A DNA stretch of 43,014 bases from Methanosarcinales archaeon (GCA_004212095.1 RXIJ01000033.1:1-43014); one strand, 5' to 3'. Shown: positions 7,582 to 27,593, counted from the first letter of the stretch. Made by a program: numbers and translations. The notes: a model not told the origin generated them from the letters alone.

Positions 7582-7592
7582 GTCCTACTTTT

Positions 7593-7613
7593 TGCACAAC
7601 TTCGCTGTGTAGA
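7593..7613 (-). repeat. REP-like hairpin repeat, copy a
   Basis: TGCACAACTTCGCTGTGTAGA is a degenerate reverse complement of TCTGCACAAC-GAA-GTTGTGCA; starts 12 bp after the cobA stop. Confidence 0.7.
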
Positions 7614-7629
7614 AGCCCCAATATTTCCA

Positions 7630-7649
7630 CACCCGATTAAAATCGGGTG
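7630..7649. other. Perfect palindrome resembling an IS200/IS605 subterminal hairpin
   Basis: CACCCGATT-AA-AATCGGGTG with 9-bp arms. The IS assignment is inference. Confidence 0.45.
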
Positions 7650-7720
7650 CATCCACCGAGAGAGGTCGCGTATTGGCATAGGTATGGACAGAAGTGGAGT
7701 GAGAATATGTAAGCGATTTC

Positions 7721-8863
7721 TTATCCATGATCCTCATTAATCAGTTCTATTCCTTCTGGCTCATCAAGATACCAAGTTCTCCCTCTTTTTTCCAATATCC
7801 CAGTTACTCGAATCCTTTTAGAATTCCTGTGTGCATCAATAGCTAAGCGATATGAACTATCATCAGGTTTGATTGTTACAGGCATGGCTTCCTCTTCTTC
7901 GAGTGTCACTATTCTAACCACATTTTCTTTTTCCGATGGCTTTTTTCTAAGTTGGAACACATAACCAACCAACTCACGTTTTTCCTTATGAGTGTCCCCC
8001 TTCAATATCTCTGCTGCTTCAGTTAGATATCCTTTTGCAGAAGGCTGCAATGAAATATCTGTATGAATGTCGCTCGGGATTGGCCACATGGGTTCCAAAT
8101 TCACAGAAATATTTAAATCATTGCCTATTCCAATATCAATAATATCCAATAACGTATCGCACATATTTGCATTGAGTCCTGTAGAATAATTATCAACTAT
8201 TGGGGCTGAGCTTTCTTCCAGAATGGAATCTTCGACATTCATAGTACCTCGGATAACGCGTAATATTGCCCCCCTTCCAAACGGTGCTGAGGTAACATTC
8301 CCTTGCAAATCAATTTGCAGGATTTTTGGCCTTTCCAGTTGGCAGTGAATATTTGCTACGAAACTTCCATATTGACTTTGTCCGATTCGGTAAGTTTCAA
8401 CAGATTTCATCGCATCTGGGAACATGCGTGAAACACTCTTCTGTAGATCAAGTTCTGCGCATGTGCTATAAACAAGAAGGTCATACACACTTTTGTATAA
8501 AGATATCCCTTGTTTAATTGGTATGCTTCCGATTTTAGTTTTCAGTGTTGGGATTCGAACTTTAAGCATATCTCCAAAAACCAATATTTGAGATAACACG
8601 TCCTCAAAGTCTCTTTCCTCAAAAGCCGAAATACAATCTACAGCAATCTCTACCACTCTATTGTAATCTATCAATTCCCTTTTTGATGGTATTAGCACCT
8701 CAAGATATTTGTTTTCTTGAATAGGATGAGGCGATCTAAATTTTAGTAATTCTACACGTCCAAATGGTTCTTCCTCCCAACCTCTATCTTTAAGATAATT
8801 TTTTAGATTTTGGATGTTCACTTGTTCTATGGGATATTTCCTTGGGGGCAGTCCATAATTCAT
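7721..8863 (-). CDS. Uncharacterised 380-aa protein coupled to the DUF4365 nuclease
   Basis: Long intact ORF with a 4-bp ATGA overlap with the upstream gene. The C-terminus AIDAHRNSKRIRVTGILEKRGRTWYL suggests an OB-like fold (inference). Confidence 0.8.
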   Translation of the reverse strand: MNYGLPPRKYPIEQVNIQNLKNYLKDRGWEEEPFGRVELLKFRSPHPIQENKYLEVLIPSKRELIDYNRVVEIAVDCISAFEERDFEDVLSQILVFGDMLKVRIPTLKTKIGSIPIKQGISLYKSVYDLLVYSTCAELDLQKSVSRMFPDAMKSVETYRIGQSQYGSFVANIHCQLERPKILQIDLQGNVTSAPFGRGAILRVIRGTMNVEDSILEESSAPIVDNYSTGLNANMCDTLLDIIDIGIGNDLNISVNLEPMWPIPSDIHTDISLQPSAKGYLTEAAEILKGDTHKEKRELVGYVFQLRKKPSEKENVVRIVTLEEEEAMPVTIKPDDSSYRLAIDAHRNSKRIRVTGILEKRGRTWYLDEPEGIELINEDHG

Positions 8864-9378
8864 GGGAGTTCACCTCCTTTAATACGATCCATAATAGACT
8901 TTAAAGACGAATCGGTGAACATCTGTTCTTTCGGAATCTTGATTCCTTGAGTTACTCTATTTGTTGAAGCGGGCATCCCTCTCAGTGACATCCAATAACC
9001 ACAATGCCTTAATGTTGTACATTCTTCATAAACCGATAACCAATCATCTTCATCGCTCGGCATACAATATAAAATAAGTATAGCAGGATTGGCACGGTCT
9101 TCTAAAATAAGCGTATTATATGTACCAATTTTAAGATCATAATGAATACAGTTGTCATCATTAGAATTTATAAAATTATGGGAAGCTTTTGCTTGGATAT
9201 GTAGGCGGCGTCCAACATCAACTCTTCTTTTTCCGATTTGCTCTACATCACCAATTTCAAGATCAATTCCATAATCATGTCCTGACGGGCGACCACAATT
9301 ATAACCTGCTTTAGCAGCTACTGATGAGATGTATGCAGAACTTAAATCTTCTTGGCGGTGTTCTCGTGTCAAGCTCAT
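8860..9378 (-). CDS. DUF4365-family PD-(D/E)xK nuclease-like protein
   Basis: QEDLSSAYISSVAAKAG, DYGIDLEI, IQAKAS, GYWMSLRG. Confidence 0.8.
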   Translation of the reverse strand: MSLTREHRQEDLSSAYISSVAAKAGYNCGRPSGHDYGIDLEIGDVEQIGKRRVDVGRRLHIQAKASHNFINSNDDNCIHYDLKIGTYNTLILEDRANPAILILYCMPSDEDDWLSVYEECTTLRHCGYWMSLRGMPASTNRVTQGIKIPKEQMFTDSSLKSIMDRIKGGELP

Positions 9379-9475
9379 TTGGCCACCTTCATTTCACTTT
9401 CCACAGTACATGGTATCGTATTTAACATGATCTCCAATCCATATAAAGATGGCTATGTGGTCTACACTCAATCCA

Positions 9476-9845
9476 GTCACTATACCCTGTGCTTATAGGT
9501 ACAGGGATTGTTAGCGTTTTTGGCATACAAAGGTTTCATTTTTATTTTGTCTTGTGTAGAGATATATTTCTCCACAACTTCCAGATCCATGATAGCATCC
9601 CGGAGCCAATATGTGATTGAGTCACCATTCCTTTAGATGTGGAAAGTGTTGTCTCAATATTCTACTGCTTCTACTTTTTATCTTCTTGGCTTATACAGCT
9701 TACAGAATACTTTGGTGGATATTTTATGAAGAGGTGGACGTGATCAACATTCACAGCCATATCTATGATTTGAATGTCAATTTCACTGCACGTTTTTCTG
9801 ATGATACCTTCTGTAACAAGGGTAAATCCCCAACCAATATTTTTC
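9476..9845 (-). mobile_element. IS200/IS605 TnpA (Y1 HUH transposase) remnant with end hairpin
   Basis: The minus strand reads MAVNVDHVHLFIKYPPKYSVS (HUH motif), then frameshifted SSRILRQHFPHLKEW. End GTCACTATACCCTGTGCTTATAGGTACAGGG at 9476-9506. Confidence 0.85.
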
Positions 9846-10104
9846 CTTGACTTTCAAAGAAGCGTAAATTGACCCACTGATTTTTCTTAAAAACCGTTAG
9901 CCATTGGACACGTTGCGGTCATGCAAGATGTATGACCTAACTTTTGATATTACCATAGTGTTGCCTCGCACAAAAAATAGATGGAAAGCTATGAAAGAAG
10001 AAAGGCAAAGATACTTGAGAAACTTGCTGATCTGCAACGAAGGCTTGAGAGCAACAGAGGCAAGGAGCGGGATGTAAGTTTTTAGGGTATGTTTGAAAGT
10101 CAAG
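9846..10104. mobile_element. 259-bp MITE-like element with 13-bp perfect inverted ends
   Basis: CTTGACTTTCAAA (9846-9858) and TTTGAAAGTCAAG (10092-10104). Internal fragment MESYERRKAKILEKLADLQRRLESNRGKER, tentatively IS1634-like. Confidence 0.6.
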
Positions 10105-10123
10105 TTTGAAAGTTACCAGTATT

Positions 10124-10207
10124 TCTGCACTTGATTTCTCCGCAATCAAGAATTATTTTCTGCACAACGAAGTTGTACGGCAGTTAGGTTAATCTCTGTA
10201 CACGAAG
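10124..10207 (+). repeat. REP/BIME-like repeat, copy b
   Basis: CTTGATTTCTCCGCAATCAAGAATTATTTTCTGCACAACGAAGTTGTACGGCAGTTAGGTTAATCTCTGTACACGAAG; colinear with the reverse complement of 22331-22403. Confidence 0.8.
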
Positions 10208-10751
10208 GGTACGGTTCTGCAGAATCATCAGCGCATCGAGTGACGTCACTTTGTTATCGCCACTTATGGCAGCTCCCACAACAGCGGGAATTGCTCCAAC
10301 CGCCATCTGTAGTGCTATAAATGCATCATTCGCTGTTACTACCCAGTCCAGATTGAGATCGCCTCTTAGGATTGGATCACGAAATGCATACAGGTAGCCA
10401 GGGTCTGAGCCGATGAAGAGGATTCTATCAGAAACTGCTGGCTGTGCTAGTTCCAGTTGCAAGTGTCATAAGTCCAGATTGAGATCGCCGGTCTCTGCAT
10501 TGAAACCGTAAACTGTGCTTTTATCATAGTTTGCTGTGGTGTAAACCATGCCGTTTGCAACAACTGGCGATGAGTCGCACTTTCCGCCTCCCAGAAGATC
10601 GTGTTTGTCACAGGCGCATATCCACTCACATTCCCGGTGCGCTCTGGGTTATGATGGAACTGTGGCCAGTCTGTAGATACTATGGATGTGGTGAGCGCAA
10701 GCAGTAAAATAATCGTTAATATTTTTGTGTTCGTGTGTGCTGTGCCTCCAT
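10184..10751 (-). pseudogene. Decayed secreted PQQ-like beta-propeller plus dockerin-like protein
   Basis: Pieces in different frames: signal peptide plus DWPQFHHNPERTG, SSPVVANGMVY, LFIGSDPGYLYAF, and dockerin-like GDLNLDWVVTANDAFIALQMAVG...VTSLDALMILQ. Confidence 0.75.
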
Positions 10752-10871
10752 TGGTTTAATGTACTATATTATTTGCTGTAACTTAAATATATTTGTTGTA
10801 CCTGACTGAACACTTGTGAGTTAACCTGTGAGAGTTAAGGTTTTAACCTTACGCACCTTTGTTTAGAGATA

Positions 10872-11189
10872 ATGCTTAAACAACGATTTGTTCCGGACAC
10901 AAGTGCGCTTACAGATGTGCGGGCAAGAGAAAAAACAGGTGACCAAACCTTCAATGTTTATATATCCAGTATACTGGATACTATTGCAGAAGCAAGACTC
11001 AGACTTGGCATAAGCTGCTATATCCCCTACCCGTCAGTATACAACGAACCCTTAGAGTTTGCAAAGAATGATGACTGTGGTGAGGGGATTTGCAGATGGT
11101 CAGAACAACTTGGACTCCGCTTTGTTGATGCTAAAACATTTCCTCTGATGCTTGGTAAGTATCTATCTAAAACAAGGGAAATTAAGTAA
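10872..11189 (+). pseudogene. HARP / RNA-free RNase P (MJ0950-like PIN protein), internally deleted
   Basis: N-terminus KQRFVPDTSALTD...AEARLRLGISCYIPYPSVYNE is joined directly to the C-terminal EGICRWSEQLGLRFV...FPLML. At 105 aa it is about half the usual length. Confidence 0.7.
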
Positions 11190-11492
11190 ATGATTACTGC
11201 TTACATATCAACCCTTGCCTTTGTGGTGATATTGTTTCTGACACTGCGGGATATTCGCATATTTCATAGAACCAATATTTATGCCTACAGAAGGGGAGCA
11301 CTTCGCGGATTAATTGCAGGTTTTGTTGCACTGTTTGGTCTTATGCTCTCAATTAATCCGGACATTTCTCCAACGATAGGATTGCTGTTAACATTTATCG
11401 CTGTTATGATAAATAAAAAAGAAGCAAGAAAGGATATATTCACACATAATGAAACCACACTCCAGCGATTTCTTGGTGCAGGTAATAAATAA
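11190..11492 (+). CDS. Hypothetical three-helix membrane protein
   Basis: Hydrophobic ORF with TLRDIRIFHRT...AYRRGALRG; abuts the HARP gene. Confidence 0.7.
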   Translation: MITAYISTLAFVVILFLTLRDIRIFHRTNIYAYRRGALRGLIAGFVALFGLMLSINPDISPTIGLLLTFIAVMINKKEARKDIFTHNETTLQRFLGAGNK

Positions 11493-11610
11493 TGTTTGGT
11501 GACTCACAAAAACTGTATGTGAGCGAAACCCGCAGGCATCACGCGGGCGTGGCGTTTATACTTTCATATACGTTAAAAAATATTAAAAAAATATAGTAAT
11601 ATTTTACAGA

Positions 11611-11829
11611 CTATAACTTATCTTTCAAGGCTTGCTTTATATCCTCTGCAGTTACAGTCACTCGATTAGCATGCTTTGCAAGATCAACAGCGCGTCTTGC
11701 AATCTTGGTGCCGTATTCTTCGAGATGCTCTGCCAAAGCTTCGCGTCCAGTTTCACTAACTCGGGTTGCACCCGCACGTTTGATAATTCGCCCTACCGGA
11801 GCGAATGATAATATATTTGTTTTTGCCAT
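11611..11829 (-). CDS. Archaeal histone (HMf family), 72 aa
   Basis: [19 protein letters not shown]...[14 protein letters not shown]. The true start is the ATG at 11829; the longer 119-aa ORF reads through a non-coding element. Confidence 0.93.
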
Positions 11830-11851
11830 ATAATCACTTCGTTTATCCAAT

Positions 11852-12195
11852 AGCCGAGAAGACCCCTTGCGATAGCTGAGGGATGAATCGGCTCCTTTTT
11901 TTGTGGGCAGTTTAACATAATGGTAGTCGCAACTACATGCCAGACCTGGCCCAGGTCTGTTGGTTCTCATTGGGATTGTTAAGAGGGGGTTTTTAAACCT
12001 GTCACACTGAGAGTTTCCTCTCTATTTAATGACAAATCACAGTTGCTACGGACTTGGGGAGCATCCATAGGTGTGTATGTATTTATCCTTCCTAACTGCT
12101 GCGTGTTTTCCTTTCTTTTGCTTTCGCTCCCTAATCAACCAGTTGCCCTTGCTCCTCACGGTGCAAGCCCCTTCCGAGAGGGAGGGGTGATTGAC
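11852..12195 (-). mobile_element. Non-autonomous IS200/IS605 (IscB/IsrB-type) element: omega-RNA scaffold plus end hairpin, nuclease ORF absent
   Basis: Starts GTCAATCACCCC at 12195 and ends in the hairpin AGCCGATTCATCCCTCAGCTATCGCAAGGGGTCTTCTCGGCT (11893-11852). Only about 50 nt lie between scaffold and end. Confidence 0.75.
11941..12195 (-). ncRNA. HEARO / omega-RNA-like structured RNA (orphan)
   Basis: Stems in HEARO-like order: GTCAATCA/TGGTTGAT, CCCCTCC/GGAAGGGG, CTTGCACC-GTGA-GGAGCAAG, CTATGGA/TCCGTAG after ACACAC, TTTGTCA/TGACAGG enclosing TTAAA and GAGAG-GAAA-CTCTC, GTTAGGAAGG/CCCTCTTAAC, terminal CAGACCTG/CAGGTCTG. The 3' end is approximate. Confidence 0.8.
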
Positions 12196-12263
12196 CTAAG
12201 TTGACTAATAGTGGGGTAATACTCCACATACAGCCAATTAAAGCTCTAATTTAGAATTAACGG

Positions 12264-12277
12264 TATATAAACCTTGT
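12264..12277 (-). promoter_or_regulatory. Putative BRE-TATA promoter for the omega-RNA/histone transcript
   Basis: The minus strand reads ACAAGG-TTTATATA; TATA at 12271-12264, about 70 bp upstream of the scaffold. Confidence 0.6.
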
Positions 12278-12403
12278 GTAATCATTGAGCTCATTCTTTC
12301 CTGTTTCAAGTGCTATTGTGTTATCAATCAATGAAAAGTGTGAATAATCCTGCTTCTCCGAAATCCATCAAGTCTCTGACTACAGGTTGATGTTAAGAGT
12401 TAG

Positions 12404-12453
12404 GCTAATTAGTAAAATGCTAATTAGTAAATAGCTTGCGAAGATTTTATATA
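12404..12453 (+). promoter_or_regulatory. Tandem 13-bp repeats plus BRE-TATA upstream of gar1-tfb
   Basis: GCTAATTAGTAAA at 12404 and 12419; GAAGAT-TTTATATA at 12440-12453. Confidence 0.55.
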
Positions 12454-12496
12454 CTATTAATAACATGTATATTAATGGTGTGAACGAGGTGAATAC

Positions 12497-12736
12497 TTGA
12501 AGCGTTTAGGTGTAATACTTCATGTGATACACAATGGTAACTTGATAGCACGGAGTGTTACTAAACTAACAAACACTGCATTAAATACTACTGTCTGGAA
12601 TGAACAGGTAAAAAAGATTGGAAAAATTGTAGACATATTTGGTCCGGTGTCGAGACCGTATTTTTCAATAAAGCCTTCTAAAAAGTCGGATTTTAAGATA
12701 CATGAACTAAAAGATAAAAATTTATATTTAAAATAA
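12497..12736 (+). CDS. gar1: H/ACA RNP component Gar1/Naf1
   Basis: KRLGVILH...IGKIVDIFGPVSRPY; lies upstream of tfb, a conserved archaeal arrangement. Confidence 0.88.
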   Translation: MKRLGVILHVIHNGNLIARSVTKLTNTALNTTVWNEQVKKIGKIVDIFGPVSRPYFSIKPSKKSDFKIHELKDKNLYLK

Positions 12737-12771
12737 AATTTTTATTAGCAAACCTATGAGGAGAATGTTGA

Positions 12772-13782
12772 ATGTCAGAAACTGAAGTGATACGAGAGAA
12801 CATATTGTCTGAGCGAAAAAAAATAAAAGAAGTCATCAAACAAAAAAAAGAGAGAGAAAAATCTGAACTTGAAAAAACACAAATCGAGTGCCCAGAGTGT
12901 GGTAGCTACAATCTTGTTCATGATTATGAAAGGGCAGAACTCGTGTGCAGTGACTGTGGGCTTGTAATAGATACAAACTTTATTGACCAGGGGCCGGAGT
13001 GGAGAGCCTTTGATAATGATCAACGAATGAAACGTTCAAGAGTTGGTGCACCTATGACATACACCATTCACGACAAAGGTTTGTCCACGATGATTGACTG
13101 GCGAAACAGGGATACGTATGGAAAATCCATTTCTGCCAAAAATCGTGCACAGTTGTACCGACTACGAAAATGGCAGCGCCGCATACGGGTAAGCAATGCG
13201 ACAGAGAGAAACCTCGCCTTTGCATTATCGGAACTGGATCGGATGGCATCAGCCCTTGCACTATCTCGAAACATCAGAGAAACTGCTGCTGTTGTCTATC
13301 GAAAGGCAGTCGGGAAAAACCTCATACGCGGTCGAAGCATCGAAGGTGTGGCAGCATCAGCTTTGTATGCAGCATGCCGACAATGTAACGTGCCGCGAAC
13401 ACTTGATGAGATAGGCGAAATCTCAAGAGTTAGCAGAAAAGAGATCGGAAGAACCTATCGATTCGTTGCCAGGGAATTAAGCCTCAAACTAACCCCAACA
13501 TCTCCAGTGGATTATGTGCCTCGCTTCTGCTCAGGATTGCATCTTAAAGGTGAAGTAGAAAGCAAAACCGTGGAAATACTGCGACAGGCAGCTGAAAAAG
13601 AACTCACGAGTGGGCGAGGCCCAACCGGGGTTGCAGCTGCAGCCATATATATTGCATCCATCCTCAACGGGGACAGAAGAACCCAGCGCGAAGTTGCGGA
13701 TGTTGCAGGGGTAACAGAGGTAACCATACGCAATCGATACAAGGAACTCGCAGAAGAACTTGACATAGAAATCATACTCTAA
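12772..13782 (+). CDS. tfb: Transcription initiation factor IIB
   Basis: Zn ribbon CPECG...CSDCG, GPEWRAF, two cyclin repeats, [13 protein letters not shown]. Confidence 0.98.
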
Positions 13783-13792
13783 GACCATTTTT

Positions 13793-15874
13793 TTGTCAAA
13801 TATCTTCTACCTGTGCTTCTGGTGGCTTGCCATTTTTATACTTGGGGCAGCCACTTATCCAATTTCTTATCGATTATTCCCTGCACTGAAAGATCGATAC
13901 GGGTTTTCAAAAATCCTTGGTTTATCGTTATTCACGTATCTCTCCTATCTTTTTTCTGTTGATAAAACAATCATCATATTTATTGTTATAATTGTCTTTG
14001 GAATTGTTGTTTTTCAGAAACTGAGGCTGAAACTGACTCTTCCCCCATTTTGTAGTTTCTATGAAGTGCTGTTTGCTGCCTCTTTTTTCTTGTTTGCGTT
14101 AATCCGCTCTTTTTATCCTGAGATCAACGGAGCAGAGAAATTCATGGATTTTGCTATTTTAAATGCAGTCTTCAGAGCAGAAAGTTTTCCTCCGCTCGAT
14201 CCATGGCTTTCCGGAGAGAATCTTGATTTTTATTATTATTTTGGACATTTGATGGTATCAAGCATCGCAAAGCTCACAGGCACACCTGTGGGGGTGGCCT
14301 ACAATCTTGGTCTTTCGATGTTTTTTGCTCTTGCAGTTACTACCGCTGCATCACTTGGATACAATCTTACCAACAAACGAAAGTATGCGATGTTGACAGC
14401 GTTCTTTGTGGTAATCTCAGGCAATCTCAAGTCAGTGCTTCTTGCATTTAGCATTGCATACTCCGGAATTTTATCGAACATTCCTTACTATTGGGAAAGT
14501 TCGCGAGTGATACCAAATACTGCAAATGAGTTTCCATGCTTCACTTTTCTGCACGGAGACCTGCATGCACATCTTGCAGCAATACCCTTGCAGTTATTAC
14601 TCCTCGTATTGTTATTGAACCTGTATCGTGAGAAAAACGTGGCATTTTTCACCTGCGTGTGTACTGGTTTTGTGCTTGGATTTTTGTTTCCAACCAATTC
14701 ATGGGATTACCCGACTTACCTCTCTATCACTGCTTTTTTAGTGTTCTACGCTGCTGGAGTGAACAAGAAGGCGTTTTCAACACTCTTGGCGATCGTTATC
14801 TCAAGCCTGCTTTTATTTGCACCTTTTTATGAAGCTTTCAATCACAGCGGAGTTGCTGGCATCAGTATGGTCAGCACGTATACGGTTATTCAGCACTACG
14901 TACTGGTATTTGGTTTATGCCTTCTACCATTAGTGTTTTTTGTGCTCTATCGTAGTGTGCCAACACTGAAGCACGAGCGCCCGGTCAGGATTGCATGTGT
15001 GCTTGTGTGTTTTACAATCATCTTGTTTGTCTCATCCAAAACAGGTTTTCAACTGCTTGCACCACTCCTATTTCTCATATCCCTGTGTGCATACAACCTT
15101 CAAAAAACACGTAAAAAAGATCAAGCGGATGACGAGTCATTTATTATGCTACTTGCTCTCACCGGACTACTTATTTCATTATTTTGTGAAATATTCTACA
15201 TTAACGATGCGTTTACCGTACCCTTTGAGAGGTTCAACACAGTGTTCAAGTTATACATGCAGACCTGGATTTTATTTACTGTGGCAGGAGTTTATGCAGT
15301 GTATCACTTTGAATACAAACTTAATGGTGTAAAGCAAAAGGTGTGGCTTGGATTCGTTGTGCTCTTAGTTATCAGTGGGCTGATTTTCCCAGCTGCTACA
15401 GTACTATTTAAAACTAATATGTTTTCAGGTGAAGCCAATCTCGATGGCATGGCATACTTAGAAAAAATATATCCCGGGGATTATCATGCAATCAGGTGGA
15501 TGCGATTGAACCTTGCAGACGATGTTATAGTGCTTGAACGTTTTGGAGAAAGCTACACATTATCCAGTCGTATTTCTACTAACACAGGAATTCCCACTGT
15601 TCTTGGCTGGGCTGGACATGAAATCATGTGGCGGCTTGACAGAGCAAAGGTAAATCAAAAAATCAACGATGTGAACACGATCTATACTACCCGGAACAGA
15701 TCTGATGTGTTATCATTAATAAATAAATATAATATAACTCATATATACGTTGGAACCATGGAACAGCAATACTATGGAAAGGCAGTGTTAAAATTCAAGA
15801 ATGACTCATCGTTTAAGCCCATCTATAAAGATGTGCACAATTCAACCACCATCTACGAAATTATGATTGGTTAG
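13793..15874 (+). CDS. DUF2298 / YYY-motif polytopic membrane protein
   Basis: EKFMDFA, PPLDPWLSG, YYYFGH, NEFP, GDLHAH, NSWDYP, RFNTVFKLY, GWAGHE. Confidence 0.88.
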   Translation: MSNIFYLCFWWLAIFILGAATYPISYRLFPALKDRYGFSKILGLSLFTYLSYLFSVDKTIIIFIVIIVFGIVVFQKLRLKLTLPPFCSFYEVLFAASFFLFALIRSFYPEINGAEKFMDFAILNAVFRAESFPPLDPWLSGENLDFYYYFGHLMVSSIAKLTGTPVGVAYNLGLSMFFALAVTTAASLGYNLTNKRKYAMLTAFFVVISGNLKSVLLAFSIAYSGILSNIPYYWESSRVIPNTANEFPCFTFLHGDLHAHLAAIPLQLLLLVLLLNLYREKNVAFFTCVCTGFVLGFLFPTNSWDYPTYLSITAFLVFYAAGVNKKAFSTLLAIVISSLLLFAPFYEAFNHSGVAGISMVSTYTVIQHYVLVFGLCLLPLVFFVLYRSVPTLKHERPVRIACVLVCFTIILFVSSKTGFQLLAPLLFLISLCAYNLQKTRKKDQADDESFIMLLALTGLLISLFCEIFYINDAFTVPFERFNTVFKLYMQTWILFTVAGVYAVYHFEYKLNGVKQKVWLGFVVLLVISGLIFPAATVLFKTNMFSGEANLDGMAYLEKIYPGDYHAIRWMRLNLADDVIVLERFGESYTLSSRISTNTGIPTVLGWAGHEIMWRLDRAKVNQKINDVNTIYTTRNRSDVLSLINKYNITHIYVGTMEQQYYGKAVLKFKNDSSFKPIYKDVHNSTTIYEIMIG

Positions 15875-16065
15875 TGCTCTCTTTATGTTTGCAATTGAGG
15901 GCCATCATGAGATAATCGACCGATAAGTTATTCCAAAGCTTAGGTAACACGAGATGATATATATGATAATGCCAATCATTGGGATTATCAGTTTTTTTGA
16001 TGACAGAGTACTTCTCAAGTATATGGGAAGTAAGATCACAAGAAAATGGAGAGTATTTGAGTTAT

Positions 16066-17226
16066 ATGTATTCAGATAGAATTAATTCGCTTCCCCCCTA
16101 CCTATTTGCAGCAATTGATGAAGGAAAGAAGGAAGCAGTAAGAAAAGGGGTTGATGTTATTGATATCGGTGTTGGCGATCCTGACCAGCCAACTCCATCG
16201 CATATCGTAGAATCTCTTTGCGTTGCAGCAAGGGACGCAAGCACCCACACCTATCCATCGTATAAAGGATTAATTACGTTTCGAGAGACTGCTTCTACAT
16301 GGTACAGCGAGCATTTCGGTGTGAACGTTGATCCACTGACTGAAGTACTCACACTCATTGGTTCAAAGGAAGGGATTGCACACGCACCCCTTGCATTTTT
16401 GAATTCTGGCGATATCGCGCTTGTGCCAGACCCTGCGTATCCTGTGTACAAAGTTGGAACGATATTTGCTGGAGGTATGCCATACATGATGCCCCTTAGT
16501 AAGGAAAACGGATTCCTGCCAGACCTTGAGGCAATACCAAAAAATATAGCAAAGAAAGCCAGGATCATGTTCCTTAACTATCCAAACAACCCGACATCAG
16601 CAACAGCAGACAAATCATTCTACAAGGAAGTTGTAGAGTTTGCAGCAGAGAATCATATCGTTGTGCTCTCTGATAATGCCTATTCAGAGATCACATTCGA
16701 TGGATACCATGCTCCGAGCTTTCTTAATGTAGATGGTGCAATAGACGTGGGAATCGAGTTTCATAGTCTTTCCAAGACATATAATATGACAGGGTGGCGT
16801 ATTGGCTTTGCTGTTGGTAACAAGGATGTCCTTGATGGTATTGGCAGGATAAAGACAAACATTGATTCAGGAGCCTTTGAAGCGGTGCAGCGTGCAGGCA
16901 TAACTGCGATGAGCGGTTCGCAGGATTGTATAGAGAACATGAGGAAAATATATATGAATCGGCGGGATGCACTGGTTAAAGGGCTGCACAATATAGGAAT
17001 TGCAGTTGAACCCCCGAAAGCAACCTTTTATATATGGGCGACTGTACCGGAAGGATATTCTTCAATAGACTTTTCAACACTCCTGTTAAATGAAGCTGGC
17101 ATCGTTGCAACACCAGGTGTCGGGTTCGGAGAATGCGGTGAGGGATACATACGTTTTGCACTCACGCAACCCGTAGAGCGTATAGAGGAAGCTTCAAAGC
17201 GCATGAAACAACTCGAACTCGATTGA
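16066..17226 (+). CDS. dapL: LL-diaminopimelate aminotransferase
   Basis: [45 protein letters not shown] (PLP lysine). Start reassigned to the ATG at 16066. Confidence 0.88.
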
Positions 17227-17280
17227 TTGTATTTATACAGAGCTATGTAATCCTGTGGTCATAAAAGAAACTCGAAGAAT

Positions 17281-17931: not shown

Positions 17932-18064
17932 AAGAGGATTAACACCAGCGATGTTAGAAGATATTGAAGAGAAAACGTGGACTGGGGTGCCCCCCACTGC
18001 ACAAAGCACAAAGCATTTATGGCGATAACACGTTAAAAAATCAAACAAGGATTGAAACTTTTTA

Positions 18065-21268: not shown

Positions 21269-21269
21269 T

Positions 21270-22304
21270 ATGCACATTTGTTTCGAGCTTTCTGGTGAGA
21301 ACAGGACACTGCCAGCAGCAGAGGTATACGCATCTCTCTCTGCAGAAGAAATAGGATATCGTGTGGTAAAACAGGATCAAAGAGTGATTATCCTAAACAT
21401 AGACAAAAACAATGTAACAAAACTGCAATTACTTAGAGAGCGACTATCAATGACCCATCGCCTCTACCAGGTGATAACCACATCTGCACCAGAAAAACAA
21501 GCAGTACTTGATGCAATCAACCGAACAGATTTATCCGGTTTTATCAAACAGGGTCAAACATATTGTGTGCGGGTGCGTAGATTGCAGTGTTGTCCACTGA
21601 TCAAAACGCCACAGGTGCTTGAACCGGAGATAGGCGAAATCATATACAGATATGGCAACAGGGCAGACCTTCAAACTCCGGATGTGTGCTTTAAACTGTT
21701 GCTTATTTCAAAGATTGCTATTTTTGGAATATTATTGCAGCAAATCAATCGCTCGTCATTTGGAGAGCGAAAGCCGATGAACAAACCGTTTTTTTATCCC
21801 GGCGTCCTCATGCCGCGCATATCACGGACGCTCATCAACCTGTGTGAGATTAAAAAAAACGAGCTCTTGCTTGACCCTTTCTGTGGAACGGCTGGAATAC
21901 TTGTAGAGGCAGGACTCCTAAATGTTGATGTGATAGGTTCGGACATCCAACGGAAAATCGTTTCCGGAGCAAAAATGAACCTTGAATATTACCTGAAAAA
22001 ATACACTCTTATGTACCAGGATGCAGCACATCTTGCACTGAAAGATGAAAGCATTGATGTTGTTGTCACTGATCCGCCCTATGGGCGTTCAACTCGCATA
22101 AAAGGCGTGGAGACAAAAAAATTAATTGAAGATGCAGTAAAAGAGATATGGCGTGTGTTGAAAAAAGGAAAAAAAGCAGGAATAATATACAAGGAGGAAA
22201 TAGATGGCCTGATAACAGGAGCAGGTTTTTCCATAGTAGAATACCATCAGGAACGGGTACATAAAAGTCTGACCAGGCACATGTACATTATAAAAAAGGA
22301 GTGA
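21270..22304 (+). CDS. trm11: tRNA (guanine-10-N2)-methyltransferase (THUMP plus MTase, Trm11/TrmG10)
   Basis: KPFFYPGVLMPRISR, LDPFCGTAGIL, TDPPYGRS, RVHKSLTR. Confidence 0.88.
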   Translation: MHICFELSGENRTLPAAEVYASLSAEEIGYRVVKQDQRVIILNIDKNNVTKLQLLRERLSMTHRLYQVITTSAPEKQAVLDAINRTDLSGFIKQGQTYCVRVRRLQCCPLIKTPQVLEPEIGEIIYRYGNRADLQTPDVCFKLLLISKIAIFGILLQQINRSSFGERKPMNKPFFYPGVLMPRISRTLINLCEIKKNELLLDPFCGTAGILVEAGLLNVDVIGSDIQRKIVSGAKMNLEYYLKKYTLMYQDAAHLALKDESIDVVVTDPPYGRSTRIKGVETKKLIEDAVKEIWRVLKKGKKAGIIYKEEIDGLITGAGFSIVEYHQERVHKSLTRHMYIIKKE

Positions 22305-22330
22305 GTGGAGACTGGTTTTTTTTATATCCA

Positions 22331-22403
22331 CTGCACAACTTCGTTGTGCAGAGATTAACCTAACAACTACACAACTTCGTTGTGTAAAAAACAACTCTTG
22401 ATT
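22331..22403 (-). repeat. REP/BIME-like repeat, copy c (two hairpins)
   Basis: CTGCACAAC-TTC-GTTGTGCAG, linker AGATTAACCTAAC, TACACAAC-TTC-GTTGTGTA, then AACTCTTGATT; starts 27 bp after the trm11 stop. Confidence 0.85.
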
Positions 22404-22432
22404 ATGTGAGCGTTTCAGCAACTTAATTTTTA

Positions 22433-23290
22433 GGGGAGGGTTGTAAACTCTCCGGGTGTTGGTGCTCATTATAGAAATATCCATGTTGGAACACCCGTAT
22501 CTTCTTTTTAAATCTGATTTTGTCCTACAATTCACGTTTTTATCCAAAAATGAATCGAAAAATCTATGTATAAGGAAAACAAAGTATGTACAATGAGTGT
22601 TACAATGTTATCTATTTTGAAAACAAACATCTCGTAGATTCAGCTTCTCTTGTCTGATTTTCCCAACGGTACCCCGGAACCAGAGAAAATCATATCAGAG
22701 CGATTTTCGATGGATAATAAACCGTATCATGTGAATAAGGAAGTGATTCTCTTAACAGATAATCATTTTGAACTTGTTAATCCGATTTGTCCATATTGTG
22801 GCTCTTATCATGTGATTCGGCAGGAGTTACGGGAGCAAAGTCCGATACTGGGTGAGTTTGGATATTGTGAGATCTATATGAGGCGTTATTTGTGTAAAAA
22901 ATGCAACAAAAAGTTTGTAACCCAGTTAAACTTAATCATAGAGTCGAATCATCGATATGCATCGATATTCAAAGGGAAAATAGATTACACAACAGTTTAC
23001 AACTTTTTAAAATTAGTATTTGCAGATAAACCGCTTATCACAATAATAACGGATCACAAGAGGCTGTATAATAGCATAATCGAGAAAATGGGAGCTTTAC
23101 ATCAATTATGCGTATTCTATCTATTCAAAATGATAAAAAAGGATGTGTATGATCGTTTGAAGTCTAAAGCTGTCTCATATTGGAATAAAATCAAATTATG
23201 CATCTATTTCACAAAAATTAAGGAAATATTCAGGACATGCAATTTTGATATTGCAATAGAAAGATTAAATAAATTATTATATATAATCAA
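22433..23290 (+). mobile_element. Internally deleted transposase remnant (Zn-ribbon plus DDE fragment; ISM1/IS256-like)
   Basis: CPYCGS...YLCKKCNKKF joined to IITDHKRLY...HQLCVFYLFK. AT-rich and truncated. Boundaries and family are approximate. Confidence 0.6.
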
Positions 23291-23450
23291 GCATAATTCA
23301 CCACACAAAGGTATGTCCAGGTGTCTTACCTTCATTCCAAACTCAACCGTTGGCCAGTACTGGTTGAGTTTTGGGTCATCAGTTCTGGCAGGGAAAGTTA
23401 CATATCTCATGTGAGGAATGGTTGATACTATATCAATCGAGGAGTATTGT

Positions 23451-24350
23451 ATGAAATTAAATGAGTTTTTAACAAGTAAAAATGTTGACAGTGGACTTGC
23501 AGAGCTTGTTGAGTTACTTGCTGAGCAGTCACAGACTATCAAAAGAGGTTTTCTTGGGCACACAGAAGATGTTGCAGGCACCATCAATATTTATGGTGAG
23601 GAGCAGCTTGTACTGGATAAATGGGCAGATGAAGTAATAGTAAGCTCACTGCAAAAATCAAAACTTGCACACTGGATAACTTCTGAAGAACAGCCGGAAG
23701 TAATTGAAATTGAAGATGCGAAACATAATTTTGGAATAACCCTTGATCCACTTGATGGATCATCGTTGATACCAGTAAATCTTACAGTAGGAACAATCAT
23801 AGGCATCTATCCCGGGGAAGTGCTTCACCCAGGTAAAAACATGATCTCTGCTATGTATTTCCTTTATGGGCCCCTAACCACACTTACTATATCGATCGCT
23901 GGAGGAGTGCATGATTTTGTGCTTGACCGTAACAATGAATACATCCTGCAAAAGGAGAATCTCACCATTCCGGATGGTAAAATATATGCATCCGGAGCAC
24001 TCAGAAAAGATTGGCTCCCCTCCCACACCACCTATGTCAACCAGCTCGAAGAAGAAGGATATAAACTGCGATACAGCGGCTCGTTCGTAGCAGACGTACA
24101 CCAGATACTTCACAAAGGTGGAATATTTTCTTATCCAGCGTATAAAGGCAAAGAGTCAGGCAAACTACGTTTACTGGTTGAAGCAAACCCACTTGGGAAA
24201 ATCGTCACAGATGCTGGCGGCGCTATTAGCAATGGAAAAGAAAACATTCTTGATGTTATGCCAACGGCGATATCAAATAGAACACCTATATATATCGGAG
24301 GCAAAAAAGAGATTGAACAAATTGAAGACATTGTTAAAAAAGCTGCTTGA
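23451..24350 (+). CDS. fbp: Class I fructose-1,6-bisphosphatase
   Basis: NIYGEEQLVLD, SEE, DPLDGSS, LRYSGSFVADVHQIL, GKLRLLVEANP. A GAGGAG RBS precedes the ATG at 23451. Confidence 0.93.
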   Translation: MKLNEFLTSKNVDSGLAELVELLAEQSQTIKRGFLGHTEDVAGTINIYGEEQLVLDKWADEVIVSSLQKSKLAHWITSEEQPEVIEIEDAKHNFGITLDPLDGSSLIPVNLTVGTIIGIYPGEVLHPGKNMISAMYFLYGPLTTLTISIAGGVHDFVLDRNNEYILQKENLTIPDGKIYASGALRKDWLPSHTTYVNQLEEEGYKLRYSGSFVADVHQILHKGGIFSYPAYKGKESGKLRLLVEANPLGKIVTDAGGAISNGKENILDVMPTAISNRTPIYIGGKKEIEQIEDIVKKAA

Positions 24351-24373
24351 CTGCACAGGTCGATTTTTAAGTA

Positions 24374-24544
24374 CTTGATTACTTCGTAATCAAGAGTTAT
24401 TTTCTGTACAGCGAAGTTGTGCAGTGCTTTCGTAATCAAGAGTTATTTTCTGTACAGCGAAGTTGTGCAGTGCTTTCGTAATCAAGAGTTATTTTCTGTA
24501 CAGCGAAGTTGTGCAGTGCTTTCGTAATCAAGAGTTATTTTCTG
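24374..24544 (+). repeat. REP-like repeat, copy d: hairpin plus perfect 46-bp tandem array (3.5 units)
   Basis: CTTGATTAC-TTC-GTAATCAAG, then the unit TTCGTAATCAAGAGTTATTTTCTGTACAGCGAAGTTGTGCAGTGCT at 24383, 24429 and 24475, with a partial copy at 24521. Confidence 0.95.
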
Positions 24545-24644
24545 CACTCGATTGCTAGTGCACTCGAGAGATATCATCTATGCAAAAGCTGTGCTTTGCA
24601 GGTGTGCAGGTATGCAAGGAATGTTTTATTAAGAAGGTTTTATT

Positions 24645-26387
24645 ATGGAAATTATTAAGGTCAAAGACTTAACAAAAAAATACAAAATAAAAAACACCGG
24701 TGATGTTGTTGTTGGACTAAACAATGTATCCTTTACAATGAACGAAGGAGAGACACTTGGAGTAATTGGAAAAAGTGGCGCAGGAAAGTCAACACTGCTC
24801 CATATACTAAGAGGTATTGAAGAGTTTGACGAAGGAGAAGCTACTATTGATGGGGTAAGGCTAACACCAGATTCTCCCAGCAGCGATTTTTCAAAGGTGC
24901 ATAAAAAAACTGCCATGCATTCCCAGCGATCTTTTGCATTATGGGGGCAGTCGATTTTACACAATGTGATGCGAAAAATCTGTGCAGCGCAAAAGGGATC
25001 TGAAGAGCTTCCGGAGCAGGACAGTACAGATTATGAATCCATCAAAGATGAGGCAATGGAAATCATAGAACTCGTTGGATTAAAAAATAAATATAAATAT
25101 TATTACAATATTTTAAGTGGTGGCGAAAAACAGCAGGTACTGCTTGCCCGTCAACTCGCATTTAAACCAAGAGTGCTTCTTCTTGACGAACCAGCCACTA
25201 TGGCAGATCCAATTACACGAAAAAACATTATCGATACCATAAAAAAAATACACGAAAAACTTGGACTCAGTACTGTATTGGTGTCTCATATGCCAGAAGT
25301 ACACGAATACCTTTCAGACCGGCTAATAATGCTTGAAAATGGATGTATTGTGAACGAAGGCTCAACATCCAAAGTGCTTGAAGAATTCACCAGGCAAATC
25401 ACAGAACCAGTACCACTTGAACCAATAACCTCCAAAACTGAAAAGATTATGCGGCTTAAAAACGTATATAAAAAATATCGTTTAGTCACAAGCAGTGAAC
25501 TGGTACAAACCATCGAAATGAAAAGCATCAACTTTTCCATACCAAAAGGCATAATAATGGCAATGATCGGACCTTCGGCAAAGGGAAAAACAGTGCTCAT
25601 TCGACTGCTTGGTGGGATTGAAAAACCAGACGATGGTGAAGTACTTGTTAATGTTGGTGGCGAATGGATTGATATTTCCAAGTACGGACGAAAGTCTATC
25701 ATCGCACGCCAGAAGGTAGAGGTCATGCACCAGGAATTTGGATTAATGTACAATGAAACAATATCAGAACAATTTGCCTATCGTCTGGGCTTAAAAAGCA
25801 TCGAAACAATCGATAGAGCTATGGCACAGGCAGAAGAGCTTGGTATCACAGACCTGAAACTTGATGTATTGTACAGACTTGCTGACCTTCCGGAAGACGA
25901 GGCAAAAGCAGCACTTAAAAAAATGGGGCTCGAAGCCGACATATTCTCTGAGCTGTTTCCAAGCTTTCCCGAAACAGAAGCAAGAAACGTAGCAAAACCA
26001 GTGCTTGAAGCATTGAATCTTTCGGAAGATATACTTGATCGTCACACTCATGAATTAAGCTGCGGTGAAGAGGTTAGAGTAGCAATTGCACTGCACATGG
26101 TGAGCAAACCGGAAATATTGCTTCTTGATGAACCTTTCGGAGATTTGGATCCATTATCTCTCAGGGATGTGCTGAATGCCATTAAAAAACTCAATAAAGA
26201 ACTCAAAACAACAATCATTGTAGTCAGTCATCAACTCGATGCAGTAAAAGAGATAGCACATGAAGCTGTGTTCATTGAAGCAGGCATCACCAGATGGGGT
26301 GAACCGGAAGAAGTCTGTGAAGTATTTTTGGAGCGAATGAGAGAGATAGAGGCTAATCCAGAGGAAAAAGAGATAGTAACTAATTAA
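24645..26387 (+). CDS. Methyl-coenzyme M reductase component A2 (AtwA)-like tandem ABC ATPase
   Basis: Two NBDs (GKSGAGKSTLLHILRG; GPSAKGKT), QRSFALW, LSGGEKQ, VMHQEFGL, LDEPFGDLDP; no TM segments. Confidence 0.75.
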   Translation: MEIIKVKDLTKKYKIKNTGDVVVGLNNVSFTMNEGETLGVIGKSGAGKSTLLHILRGIEEFDEGEATIDGVRLTPDSPSSDFSKVHKKTAMHSQRSFALWGQSILHNVMRKICAAQKGSEELPEQDSTDYESIKDEAMEIIELVGLKNKYKYYYNILSGGEKQQVLLARQLAFKPRVLLLDEPATMADPITRKNIIDTIKKIHEKLGLSTVLVSHMPEVHEYLSDRLIMLENGCIVNEGSTSKVLEEFTRQITEPVPLEPITSKTEKIMRLKNVYKKYRLVTSSELVQTIEMKSINFSIPKGIIMAMIGPSAKGKTVLIRLLGGIEKPDDGEVLVNVGGEWIDISKYGRKSIIARQKVEVMHQEFGLMYNETISEQFAYRLGLKSIETIDRAMAQAEELGITDLKLDVLYRLADLPEDEAKAALKKMGLEADIFSELFPSFPETEARNVAKPVLEALNLSEDILDRHTHELSCGEEVRVAIALHMVSKPEILLLDEPFGDLDPLSLRDVLNAIKKLNKELKTTIIVVSHQLDAVKEIAHEAVFIEAGITRWGEPEEVCEVFLERMREIEANPEEKEIVTN

Positions 26388-26389
26388 GT

Positions 26390-27418
26390 ATGGTGCTGCG
26401 CACAATCGACTGGGACAGCGAAAAGAATACCATTCGCCTGTTGGATCAGACACTTCTACCAACAGAATACAAAACGATTGAGTGCAGCACGGTCAACTCC
26501 CTCTGTGAGGCAATTAAAACACTACGAGTCAGGGGCGCTCCCGCGATTGGGGCAGCAGGAGCGTACGGCATAGCACTTGCAGCACATAAAAGCAAAGCTT
26601 CTACAGCACTGGAATTATTAGATGAATTGGAATCCAAAGCAGCACAGATAAAGAGCACACGTCCAACAGCGTCAAACCTCTCTTTTTCAGTAGAACGAGT
26701 GATAAACACAATTAAATCGATTGCTGCTACAAAAGTAGATATAATCGATGTCGCCACCGAAGAAGCACAGCTAATTGCAGACGAAGACATTATCATCAAC
26801 AAAAAACTGAGTAAACATGGTGCAAAATTACTTGAAGATGGTGATACAGTGATGACACATTGCAATGCCGGACGATTTGCCTGTGTTGGTTGGGGAACTG
26901 CTCTTGGAGTGGTACGATCGGCAGTAGAAGATGGAAAAGAAATAAGAGTCGTTGCCTGCGAAACAAGACCTTTACACCAGGGAAGCCGTATCACCACGTA
27001 TGAACTGATGGAAGACAAAATACCAGTAACTCTGATCACTGACAGTACGGCAGGATACGTGATGCGTCGCGGGCTTGTTGACAAAGTAATCGTTGGAGCA
27101 GATAGAATTACAGAGGATGCTGTATTCAACAAAATTGGAACCTACACTCACAGCGTGCTTGCAAAGGAACATGACATCCCGTTCTGTGTTGCAGCACCAG
27201 CGTCCACTGTAGACTGCAAACACAGCGAGGACGAGATAACAATCGAAGAGCGAGACCCTGATGAGCTTCGATACTTCAAAGGAAGCCAGGTTGCTCCATA
27301 CAATGTGCCAGTATACAATCCCGCCTTTGATGCCACACCAATGGAAAACATAACTGCCGTAATCACAGAAAAAGGGGTATTCCAGCCGCCATTTCTAATA
27401 GAAGAGCTGATAATATAA
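26390..27418 (+). CDS. mtnA: S-methyl-5-thioribose-1-phosphate isomerase (eIF-2B alpha-like family)
   Basis: LDQTLLP, VRGAPAIG, TRPTA, THCNAG, ETRPLHQGSR, NKIGTY, NPAFDATP. Confidence 0.92.
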   Translation: MVLRTIDWDSEKNTIRLLDQTLLPTEYKTIECSTVNSLCEAIKTLRVRGAPAIGAAGAYGIALAAHKSKASTALELLDELESKAAQIKSTRPTASNLSFSVERVINTIKSIAATKVDIIDVATEEAQLIADEDIIINKKLSKHGAKLLEDGDTVMTHCNAGRFACVGWGTALGVVRSAVEDGKEIRVVACETRPLHQGSRITTYELMEDKIPVTLITDSTAGYVMRRGLVDKVIVGADRITEDAVFNKIGTYTHSVLAKEHDIPFCVAAPASTVDCKHSEDEITIEERDPDELRYFKGSQVAPYNVPVYNPAFDATPMENITAVITEKGVFQPPFLIEELII

Positions 27419-27484
27419 TTCTTGCAAGGGTGGTTCGATTTCTTGCTTGACGTATAAGAGGGTATAAACGCAACCACGTTCTCT

Positions 27485-27593
27485 TGCACTTGATTGCTTG
27501 CGAGAGTCAAGAGTTATTTCTGCACAACGAAGTTGCTTGTTTCCGTCGCGCAAGGATGCACCGTTTTTGCTGCACAATCAAGAGTTATTTCTG
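27485..27593 (+). repeat. REP-like repeat, copy e (one near-full and one partial unit)
   Basis: TCAAGAGTTATTTCTGCACAACGAAGTTG (27507-27535) and AATCAAGAGTTATTTCTG (27576-27593). Confidence 0.8.

Follow-up and report, generated by a model that had tools for sequence, protein, structure and literature searches.

Small hairpin repeats confined to one Methanosarcinales genus: a mosaic family that probably spreads as non-autonomous DNA

In a stretch of 43,014 nucleotides (nt) from a Methanosarcinales archaeon (GCA_004212095.1, RXIJ01000033.1:1-43014; this whole stretch is called the window here), five loci, near positions 7593, 10124, 22331, 24374 and 27485, carry short hairpins joined by recurrent linkers. 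We consider it probable that these loci belong to a genus-specific family of small non-coding hairpin repeats, that is, of self-spreading but non-autonomous DNA whose modules follow one another head to tail in mosaics. The cassettes combine fixed linkers with hairpins of at least five types (A, B, C, D and E). Virgin sites have been colonised, and in about one third of the pairs of filled and empty sites the filled one reads X-E-X, where X is duplicated local DNA and E the inserted segment (hairpin type E is always called hairpin E below). Moreover, X-E units have afterwards been amplified in tandem, one and the same site holding 0, 1 and 2 units in three genomes. Host effects, such as hairpins at mRNA 3' ends or duplicated ribosome-binding sites, would probably be secondary.

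The window is contig C35 of a 1.46-Mb draft genome of 119 contigs (G000; 41% G+C, 79% complete). It was compared with three further genomes of the genus (G001 to G003), all four being incomplete draft bins with a completeness of 56-82%, and with a wider sample from the family or order, comprising 37 further genomes (27 of them of high quality). To judge by record titles reading Ca. Argoarchaeum ethanivorans, a cultured ethane oxidiser belongs to the genus. In orthologous DNA, the relatives share 90-96% identity with the window, and in four genomes this close filled and empty sites can be read directly.

Hairpin cassettes, their copies and their sites

The five loci were first described in a reading made from the sequence of the window alone (the sequence-only reading in what follows), and all of them, with their shared modules, are present where that reading placed them. 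Hairpin B is CTGCACAAC-GAA-GTTGTGCAG; its core, ACAACGAAGTTGT, has nine matches in the window at no more than one mismatch, against 0.09 expected and with none of 100 shuffles giving nine, and one of these matches, at 16622 within an aminotransferase gene, is due to chance. The linkers AGTTATTT(T) and GTTAGGTTAATCT (the latter abbreviated L2) were both found, and the compensated pair TACACAAC/GTTGTGTA at 22367-22387 is real. Hairpin A had been given as CTTGATTAC-TTC-GTAATCAAG, a form which in exactly these letters occurs just once in the window. Genome-wide, A reads CTYGAYTR, 5-6 nt and YARTCRAG, with many different loops, and a TTC loop is no trait of the family. Because the exact form is found once and the loops of A are so diverse, the C-GAA-G loops that A and B were said to carry on opposite strands are a peculiarity of one copy.

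The expectation of many copies genome-wide was borne out, since a k-mer census of G000 gives 135 B sites (counted at up to three mismatches, with the double counts of near-palindromes removed). The B 21-mer CTGCACAACGAAGTTGTGCAG occurs there 50 times exactly, 94 times at up to one mismatch and 120 times at up to two, its reversed control having 0 matches, and the most frequent 12-mers of the genome are words of B, followed by words of hairpins A and C. Perfect hairpins with an 8-bp stem number 372, their top families being B, C (CTGCAAAGC..GCTTTGCAG) and A in five variants of its stem, with about 97 sites for A in all; hairpins D (CCGCACAC-GGA-GTGTGCGG) and E (CTGTACAC-GAA-GTGTACAG) are rarer.

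Placement was scored with a crude gene caller of our own (1296 genes, 77% coding). Outside called genes lie 131 of the 135 B sites, and three of the four inside are within 25 nt of a stop codon. Spacers between tandem genes hold 78 sites, convergent spacers 20, divergent spacers 13 and contig edges 20, which amounts to 0.52, 0.45 and 0.19 sites per kb of tandem, convergent and divergent spacer, respectively. In tandem spacers, 54 of the 78 sites are closer to the end of the upstream gene, and with respect to that gene 45 are in the opposite and 33 in the same orientation. The family is therefore strongly extragenic and mildly 3'-biased, with no orientation by transcription. The claim that copies lie at the 3' ends of genes thus holds as a moderate genome-wide enrichment, but many new copies are found at gene starts. 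No replication-strand bias was seen for B on 13 contigs of G003 (53 runs where 50 are expected, with 49 plus and 35 minus), origins not having been located on them.

Within the mosaics, modules are combined by a simple grammar. Among neighbours no more than 60 nt apart, 145 of 148 pairs in the whole of G000 (145:3) and 73 of 76 in 1.5 Mb of G003 (73:3) are co-oriented, and the favoured order is left A, right A, B. The word (T)TYTCTGCA(C) precedes every hairpin type, all cassettes begin there, and the consensus foot of the hairpins is (T)CTGCA...TGCAG(T). In tandem, A with its linker recurs every 51 nt or so, and B with half-A and linker every 59-61 nt; the period is 46 nt in the array of the window at 24383-24544 and 35-36 nt for B plus linker GTTAGGTTAATCT. 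In G000, B is part of 26 tandem arrays whose period is 20 nt or more, many of them 95-100% identical. Often at the edge of a mosaic there is a further conserved module of about 60 nt with TATA-like boxes, called P (consensus TTTTTAACGTATAgGAAAsTATAAACGCAAC..., 15 copies listed), which is often followed by CTCTTGCTAyTGAAATTCGATA or by hairpin A and which, by its sequence, could be a promoter of a small RNA or the end of another element.

It is the hairpin itself that is the conserved unit, as A stems covary and B copies are near-identical. Three variable positions of the A stem change together: in G000, position 3 is C-G in 56 copies, T-A in 32 and mismatched in 9, position 6 is T-A in 74, C-G in 16 and mismatched in 7, and position 8 is G-C in 47, A-T in 39 and mismatched in 11. 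Perfect pairing is seen in 77 of 97 A copies in G000, with seven stem types, and in 100 of 120 in G003, with six. The B copies vary little, 119 of 135 having the GAA loop, and their stem cells comprise 1105 Watson-Crick pairs, 53 G-T, 35 A-C and 22 other mismatches, with six doubly changed pairs.

The family is genus-specific, being found in four of four genomes of the genus and in 0 of 37 others. Namely, at up to one mismatch the B 19-mer has 101, 94, 195 and 152 copies in G000, G001, G002 and G003, and 0 in the 37 other genomes of the family or order; for the A arm, the counts are 70, 44, 52 and 67 in these four genomes and three or fewer elsewhere. In a species-level genome collection, the exact B 21-mer occurs in at least 106 stretches, and among the 80 matches listed it lies in records titled Ca. 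Argoarchaeum ethanivorans or in GoM-Arc1 bins. One further contig with the 21-mer (L195) carries a Desulfobacteraceae bin label. Its 321-nt piece with the B hairpin is 100% identical to G003:C40:63431-63751, and transfer into a sulfate reducer was therefore rejected in favour of a binning duplicate, the contig having probably been filed in two bins of one culture.

At orthologous sites, mosaics gain and lose whole cassettes very fast. Genomes G000 and G003 are about 95% identical, yet among the 55 G000 mosaics that could be mapped between collinear flanks to G003 (1.50 Mb of it) the length is kept, within 5 nt, at 6; 29 exceed their G003 counterpart by 20 nt or more, 12 fall short of it by 20 nt or more, and 12 of the 55 face a G003 site without any module. 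In the reverse comparison of 49 G003 mosaics, 8 are equal, 15 at least 20 nt longer and 17 at least 20 nt shorter, with 11 facing a module-free site. The same can be followed at the loci of the window. After cobA, G003 has the same single B as G000, G001 has A and B, and G002 has about seven modules with B reversed, synteny with all three relatives stopping just past this B hairpin. After trm11, G003 reads B-A-P, G001 reads B-L2-B-A-P with an extra 36-nt unit of B and L2, and G002 reads E-E-B-A (E being hairpin E), while G000 has the arrangement of G001 but with A interrupted by an insertion sequence (IS). After fbp, G003 has one A-B unit and is without the last A variant; in G000 there are three B units, and the additional A variant is present. 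After mtnA, finally, G003 has P-A and a full B, at which synteny ends, B is cut in G000, and G002 has no module. Logan contigs from four DNA runs are short, show 90-99% likeness and stop at the repeats, where word depth reaches 5-18 times the value in the flanks; among them there were no usable bridging contigs by which unit-number polymorphism could be seen.

The anatomy of colonised sites is best seen where the partner genome has no module at all. In 8 of 23 such pairs, the filled site reads X-E-X and the empty one a single X. These are, in G000, C12:7698 (X of 34 nt, E of 38 nt), C108:13517 (two 72-nt units), C117:4565 (X of 50 nt, E of 21 nt), C8:26273 (X of 28 nt) and C70:13973 (X of at least 44 nt), and, in G003, C40:73980 (X of 39 nt), C8:43386 (X of 32 nt, E being an A cassette) and C30:9765 (X of 29 nt). 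The segment E terminates exactly at a hairpin foot (...GTGCAG) that is joined straight to X, and on its other side it includes 0 to about 64 nt of the usual pre-hairpin sequence, be it linker, part of D or the whole of A; where E is of the A type, it spans precisely one cassette, starting at (C/A)TGCAC and stopping just short of the next CTGCAC position. The duplicated X, 28-50 nt or more in length, is local DNA that is otherwise unique. In many cases it carries a ribosome-binding site with a start codon, or a stop codon, and both neighbouring genes therefore stay intact; examples are the starts of precorrin methyltransferase-like and ScpB-like genes, named from their first residues only. Inspection of 11 events by eye gave no common target word at the junctions, where microhomology is 1-3 nt at C75, C108 and C3 and absent at C12, C117 and C28. 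Neither G001 nor G003 has an insert at the C12 site, the double unit at C108:13517 is common to G000 and G001 and absent in G003, and at C117 the sequence is X in G003, X-B-X in G000 and X-B-X-B-X in G001. Of 126 B sites screened automatically, 18 have a flanking direct repeat that is unique in its surroundings, a few of the 18 being ordinary mosaic periodicity.

Units made of a hairpin and unique DNA have periods of 65-77 nt, mostly 71-74 nt (12 of about 30 arrays or inserts; examples are G000:C2:4201, C26:6328, C42:7711, C94:12992 and C108:13465), and the 71-74-nt period holds whatever the split between hairpin and flank (21+50, 38+34, 34+39, 42+32). Histone wrapping and Okazaki-flap sizes were considered for this period, and neither seems to fit. 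One insertion lies inside an essential gene. In the gene for O-phosphoseryl-tRNA synthetase (SepRS) of G000 (C10:17741-17828, L251), and likewise in G003, there is a 66-nt X-E-X in frame, whose peptide reads VNDGNILGVS-PAQLRCAEPHTP-VNDGNIPIVS. When aligned to the solved Archaeoglobus enzyme 2du3 (620 bits), the protein loses its match precisely at the insert, having 31 residues where 2du3 has 10. The insert adds some 22 residues, placed between catalytic body and C-terminal domain.

How the hairpins may spread

The anatomy described above could arise if a segment of a mosaic were copied with one end fixed at a hairpin foot, and if this copy were then either inserted at a break with a wide stagger or brought in by template switching, whereupon fill-in would duplicate the flank; slipped-strand or unequal recombination between hairpins would later alter the number of units. 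A foot-specific nick at CTGCAC/GTGCAG, possibly made by an IS200-type Y1 nuclease, is a guess on our part. That small hairpin DNA indeed moves in archaea by such an undescribed route, with foot-anchored copying, target duplications of 28-50 nt and no dedicated transposase, is a tentative suggestion on our part, and we would call it rather doubtful at this stage. If true, genes with an insertion at the start, at the end or, as in SepRS, inside would stay intact through the duplication of the target.

Several points weigh against reading the loci as self-spreading DNA. In the four draft genomes, no protein is tied to the hairpin family and no insertion was caught in the act. In addition, 15 of the 23 filled/empty pairs have no clear flank duplication. 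Three of these are plain inserts of 110-170 nt (C31:2060, C45:3144 and C8:17224), one is a bare B insert of 24-25 nt next to an existing A (G003:C40:35194), another is a 48-51-nt A cassette between two TCTGCAC words (G003:C10:57764), and the rest are cassette swaps, complex cases or artefacts of the module threshold; several processes may therefore be at work rather than one. A pair of X-E-X and X can also be read as a precise loss through recombination between the two X copies; the origin of X-E-X then still needs an insertion, with its timing uncertain. The covariation of A stems, for its part, could stem from hairpin-templated repair, with no need for selection, and the location statistics rest on our crude gene caller. 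Finally, all four genomes are incomplete bins whose assemblies break at repeats, and the counts given here are therefore lower bounds, a gene may have been missed, and all negative findings are limited accordingly.

Three other explanations have to be set against self-spreading, non-autonomous DNA. One, raised by the sequence-only reading, is an archaeal counterpart of the bacterial system of repetitive extragenic palindromes (REP) and their REP-associated tyrosine transposases (RAYT), in which a Y1 HUH enzyme, be it an unseen RAYT or an IS200-type TnpA acting in trans, recognises the hairpins as single-stranded DNA, nicks them at the foot and spreads them. The cassette and insert edges lie exactly at CTGCAC/GTGCAG feet, as a structure-guided nick predicts, and IS200-type tnpA genes, together with many pseudogenes, are present in all four genomes of the genus, one pseudogene adjoining the locus at 10124. 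G000 itself has by Pfam (Y1_Tnp) one intact tnpA (152 aa, C116), which is of IS200 type (122.7 bits with NF033573 against 24.7 bits with the RAYT model), and three fragments, one of them at 9638-9862(-) by that locus; G002 has five intact genes of different types and G003 one. Upstream of three of these seven intact genes a mosaic lies within about 200 nt, but none does downstream (0 of 7), so that mosaics are on one side of tnpA only. What is more, an abundant IS, of which copy L024 is intact, begins directly after hairpin A. It ends, however, with an unrelated hairpin of its own, CCCTGTAC-TTGA-GTACGGGG, and its left end has no hairpin like A or B, as judged for one IS type in many copies, the four other TnpA types of G002 lying outside the comparison. 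To us, this looks like an IS200-type element inserting beside the repeats, by analogy with the IS elements that insert at bacterial REPs (PMC8450116). The proposed link to a RAYT finds no support in the genomes at hand, given that the RAYT model NF047646 reaches at best 41 bits against a cut-off of 80 bits in G000-G003, at a completeness of 56-82%. Likewise, a survey of 172 archaeal genomes records only IS200 subclass 1.1 among Y1 TnpA (PMC6006769). Of 41 genomes of the order, 32 have the same TnpA type (65-76% identity), and most of these lack the repeats, which occur in four; TnpA therefore does not track the repeats. Finally, the 11 X junctions share no common target word, orientations do not cluster along contigs (the 53 runs given above), and neither IS200/IS605 nor REP insertion is known to produce flank duplications. 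All in all, we regard spread by such an enzyme as unlikely.

According to another explanation, the modules are selected host RNA elements, such as 3'-UTR (untranslated region) stabilisers, terminators or P-driven small RNAs, and their spread is a by-product. The moderate bias to gene 3' ends and the depletion of divergent spacers speak for this, as do the covarying A stems, the TATA-like box of the P module about 25 nt before hairpin A, and the linker TTATTTTCT after hairpin A, which presumably resembles an archaeal oligo-U terminator. The slight excess of G-T over A-C in B stems (53 vs 35) points the same way; on the other hand, the mismatches of A stems are nearly symmetric (G-T:A-C of 14:13 in G000 and 15:7 in G003), and taken together these asymmetries are too weak for a strand test to call a role in RNA. 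Near-symmetric mismatches and an almost random orientation to the upstream gene argue against selection on a single RNA strand, and the pattern fits either a requirement at the level of DNA or a copying process that renews both arms. Moreover, copy number is not conserved at orthologous sites, many of the window copies no longer fold, inserts are found in either orientation, at gene starts and within SepRS, and Rfam 15 gives no match at E <= 1 between 22200 and 27700 and, at gathering thresholds over the whole window, none other than the HEARO match described below. We therefore think it quite improbable that selection on RNA accounts for the family. Still a little less probable in our estimate is a retro-type spread, in which an RNA ending at the hairpin foot would be copied into a nicked target by a target-primed reverse transcriptase. 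Such a process would suit the constant ...GTGCAG end, the variable upstream extent of 0 to about 64 nt, the variable duplications of 28-50 nt and the absence of a target word. However, the reverse transcriptase domain RVT_1 is found in one of the four genomes (G003) and not in G000, G001 or G002, all of them incomplete, the inserts take both orientations relative to local transcription, and A-type cassettes end ahead of the next CTGCAC rather than at a hairpin foot. What is more, we know of no target-primed retro system of this kind in prokaryotes.

The loci of the window and their neighbours

The flanking genes had been named cobA, trm11, fbp, mtnA and a dockerin pseudogene, and Pfam agrees for the former four, the genes ending at 7581 (TP_methylase/cobA), 22304 (trm11-like), 24350 (fbp) and 27418 (IF-2B/mtnA), but the 'dockerin' open reading frame (ORF) at 10184-10462(-) stays below threshold, with 20.4 bits against a cut-off of 22.9. 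Further Pfam neighbours in the window are hemC and an ABC ATPase. Folded as single-stranded DNA, only four window copies clearly beat their shuffles, namely B at 22331 (-8.4 kcal/mol, z = -4.9; this is the consensus B), B at 22367 (-5.9), A at 24374 (-5.6) and A at 10128 (-4.0 kcal/mol). The B copies at 7592, 10160, 24404 (three times) and 27520 are decayed or cut and fold at the level of shuffles, with -1.5 to -2.6 kcal/mol.

The first locus is a lone decayed hairpin B at 7592..7613 on the minus strand, 11 nt past the cobA stop (-2.1 kcal/mol). Beyond it, 7621-9400 comprises a 380-aa ORF without Pfam match and a DUF4365 protein, followed by IS200 remnants, and looks like an inserted island. 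Alignment with L024, the intact copy, marks 9474..9900(-) as what is left of an IS200-type element, with a tnpA pseudogene and a right-end hairpin region; its Y1_Tnp match (Pfam, 39.1 bits, three stops) is the one at 9638-9862(-), and the right-end hairpin region lies at 9474-9560(-). The remnant, whose pseudogene the sequence-only reading had overlooked, adjoins the mosaic at 10124 and is not composed of its hairpins. A second IS200-type remnant was aligned at 42560-42791.

As judged from module matches and folding, the mosaic at 10124..10222 (plus strand) reads A-linker-B-GTTAGGTTAATCT-E, with A at 10128-10150, B with a decayed 3' arm at 10160-10180, GTTAGGTTAATCT at 10183-10195 and an E-type hairpin at 10196-10214, which had escaped the sequence-only reading. 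By the same evidence, the mosaic at 22329..22404 (minus strand) reads B-L2-B-linker-half A, that is, a consensus B at 22331-22351, the A-T-compensated B at 22367-22387 and the left half of A, cut at 22404. Inside this hairpin A sits an internally deleted IS6/IS240-like DDE element (22438..23287, plus strand), likewise absent from the sequence-only reading, which orthology and its other copies identify; it is present at this site in G000 only, the orthologues in G001, G002 and G003 being without it. The element has many copies in G003 and G000, among them full ones at G003:C4:183576-184694+ and G003:C4:19803-20920. A full copy encodes a 414-aa zinc-finger DDE transposase (PF13610 DDE_Tnp_IS240, 27.3 bits, just at cut-off), and the window copy has a 254-aa ORF without Pfam match.

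The mosaic at 24374..24570 (plus strand) consists of a perfect A (24374-24394), 3.5 tandem units of 46 nt (period 46, 100% match), each unit being linker, B variant CTGTACAGCGAAGTTGTGCAG and half A, and an A variant (24542-24570), also an addition to the earlier description. At 27440..27593 (plus strand), module matches and folding give P-A-linker-cut B-half A-linker, where A (27487-27511) is decayed and B (27520-27535) is cut after 16 nt; the promoter-like P module (27440-27486) and the half-A with linker (27570-27593) are again new. A second copy of the P module (TTTTTAACGTATAnGAAAGTATAAACGC...), with no A or B behind it, lies at approximately 11520..11575 on the minus strand (13-mer match from 11549).

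Elsewhere in the window, Rfam HEARO (RF02033) is matched over its full length at 11959-12195(-), scoring 108.8 bits where the gathering score is 83; the match stands directly upstream of a histone-fold ORF (11611-11970, PF00808). HEARO RNA usually accompanies IscB/HNH genes of IS200/IS605-type elements; no HNH/IscB ORF was seen here. Tandem coding repeats of 72 nt within ORFs at 633-816 and 2115-2298 are unrelated to the hairpin family.

Comparison with known systems

Small palindromic repeats shape bacterial genomes, and their spread there is explained by RAYT transposases, for which there is no report from archaea (PMC6006769). The sequence-only reading did not recognise the present family as a named one, and we too found no name for it in Rfam or in the literature; searches on the genus with repeats or transposases, and on palindromic repeats in Methanosarcinales, gave nothing relevant, supplements not being covered. 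With REPs and bacterial interspersed mosaic elements (BIMEs) it shares short (about 20-40 nt) imperfect palindromes, more than 100 extragenic copies, mosaics with fixed linkers, restriction to a lineage and a role as hot spot for IS. The proposed BIME-like layout is right as regards the mosaic of hairpins and fixed linkers, but BIMEs alternate, whereas the archaeal modules are co-oriented. The host is an archaeon, no RAYT was detected, and new copies often come with flank duplications of 28-50 nt. Also, REP palindromes carry a conserved GTAG or CGTC head tetranucleotide (PMC3733652), and the archaeal foot is CTGCA...TGCAG with no such head. REPINs (REP doublets forming hairpins) are likewise small non-autonomous hairpin DNA that persists in one lineage. 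Their doublets are inverted, however, whereas the archaeal arrays run head to tail, and no single-copy RAYT partner was found.

MITEs (miniature inverted-repeat transposable elements) of archaea, and palindrome-associated transposable elements derived from IS200/IS605 (PATEs), are also non-autonomous, intergenic and present in high copy; a review lists archaeal MITEs in Sulfolobus, Halobacterium, Haloquadratum and others (PMC10969869). The archaeal units of 21-60 nt are, by contrast, far under MITE size, no examined parent IS shares their ends, and their duplications are long and variable, with no fixed target word, whereas those of MITEs are short and fixed. Membership among MITEs was rejected, one DDE IS having been examined (the IS240-like one), with unrelated ends GGGTTGTAAACTCTCC... 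and duplications that do not fit. The same fate befell PATE-like elements, as the IS ends differ and the 11 X-E-X junctions have no 4-5-nt target word but 28-50-nt duplications. The short hairpin arrays (2-5 units, periods of 35-139 nt) were also considered as CRISPR arrays, and this was rejected in view of 'spacers' that copy one another and the local flank (cas genes being outside the search).

Rickettsia palindromic elements are palindromic too, with no known transposase, and lie in frame in genes, as the 66-nt SepRS unit does here. Those elements are single bacterial units of 100-150 bp, and they are not known to form cassette mosaics or long flank duplications. The hairpin repeats of organelles, such as the repetitive hairpin elements (RHE) of sponge mitochondria and the palindromes of Volvox, are short, invade spacers and have no known enzyme, in unrelated hosts and with unrelated sequences, the comparison resting on titles and abstracts. 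For intergenic palindromes, the published work that we found gives only generic counts for six archaeal genomes, none of them Methanosarcinales-like (PMC12306157).

The family also matters in practice, since the repeats break assemblies, create pseudo gene starts, extend ORFs and add peptides to essential proteins. In sum, the family works like REPs and BIMEs, as selfish or structural hairpin DNA of spacers, yet on the points above it differs from REP/BIMEs, REPINs, MITEs and IS200-derived elements alike, and its anatomy, with one end fixed at a hairpin foot, a variable upstream extent, a long duplication and tandem amplification, is predicted by none of the known small-repeat systems.

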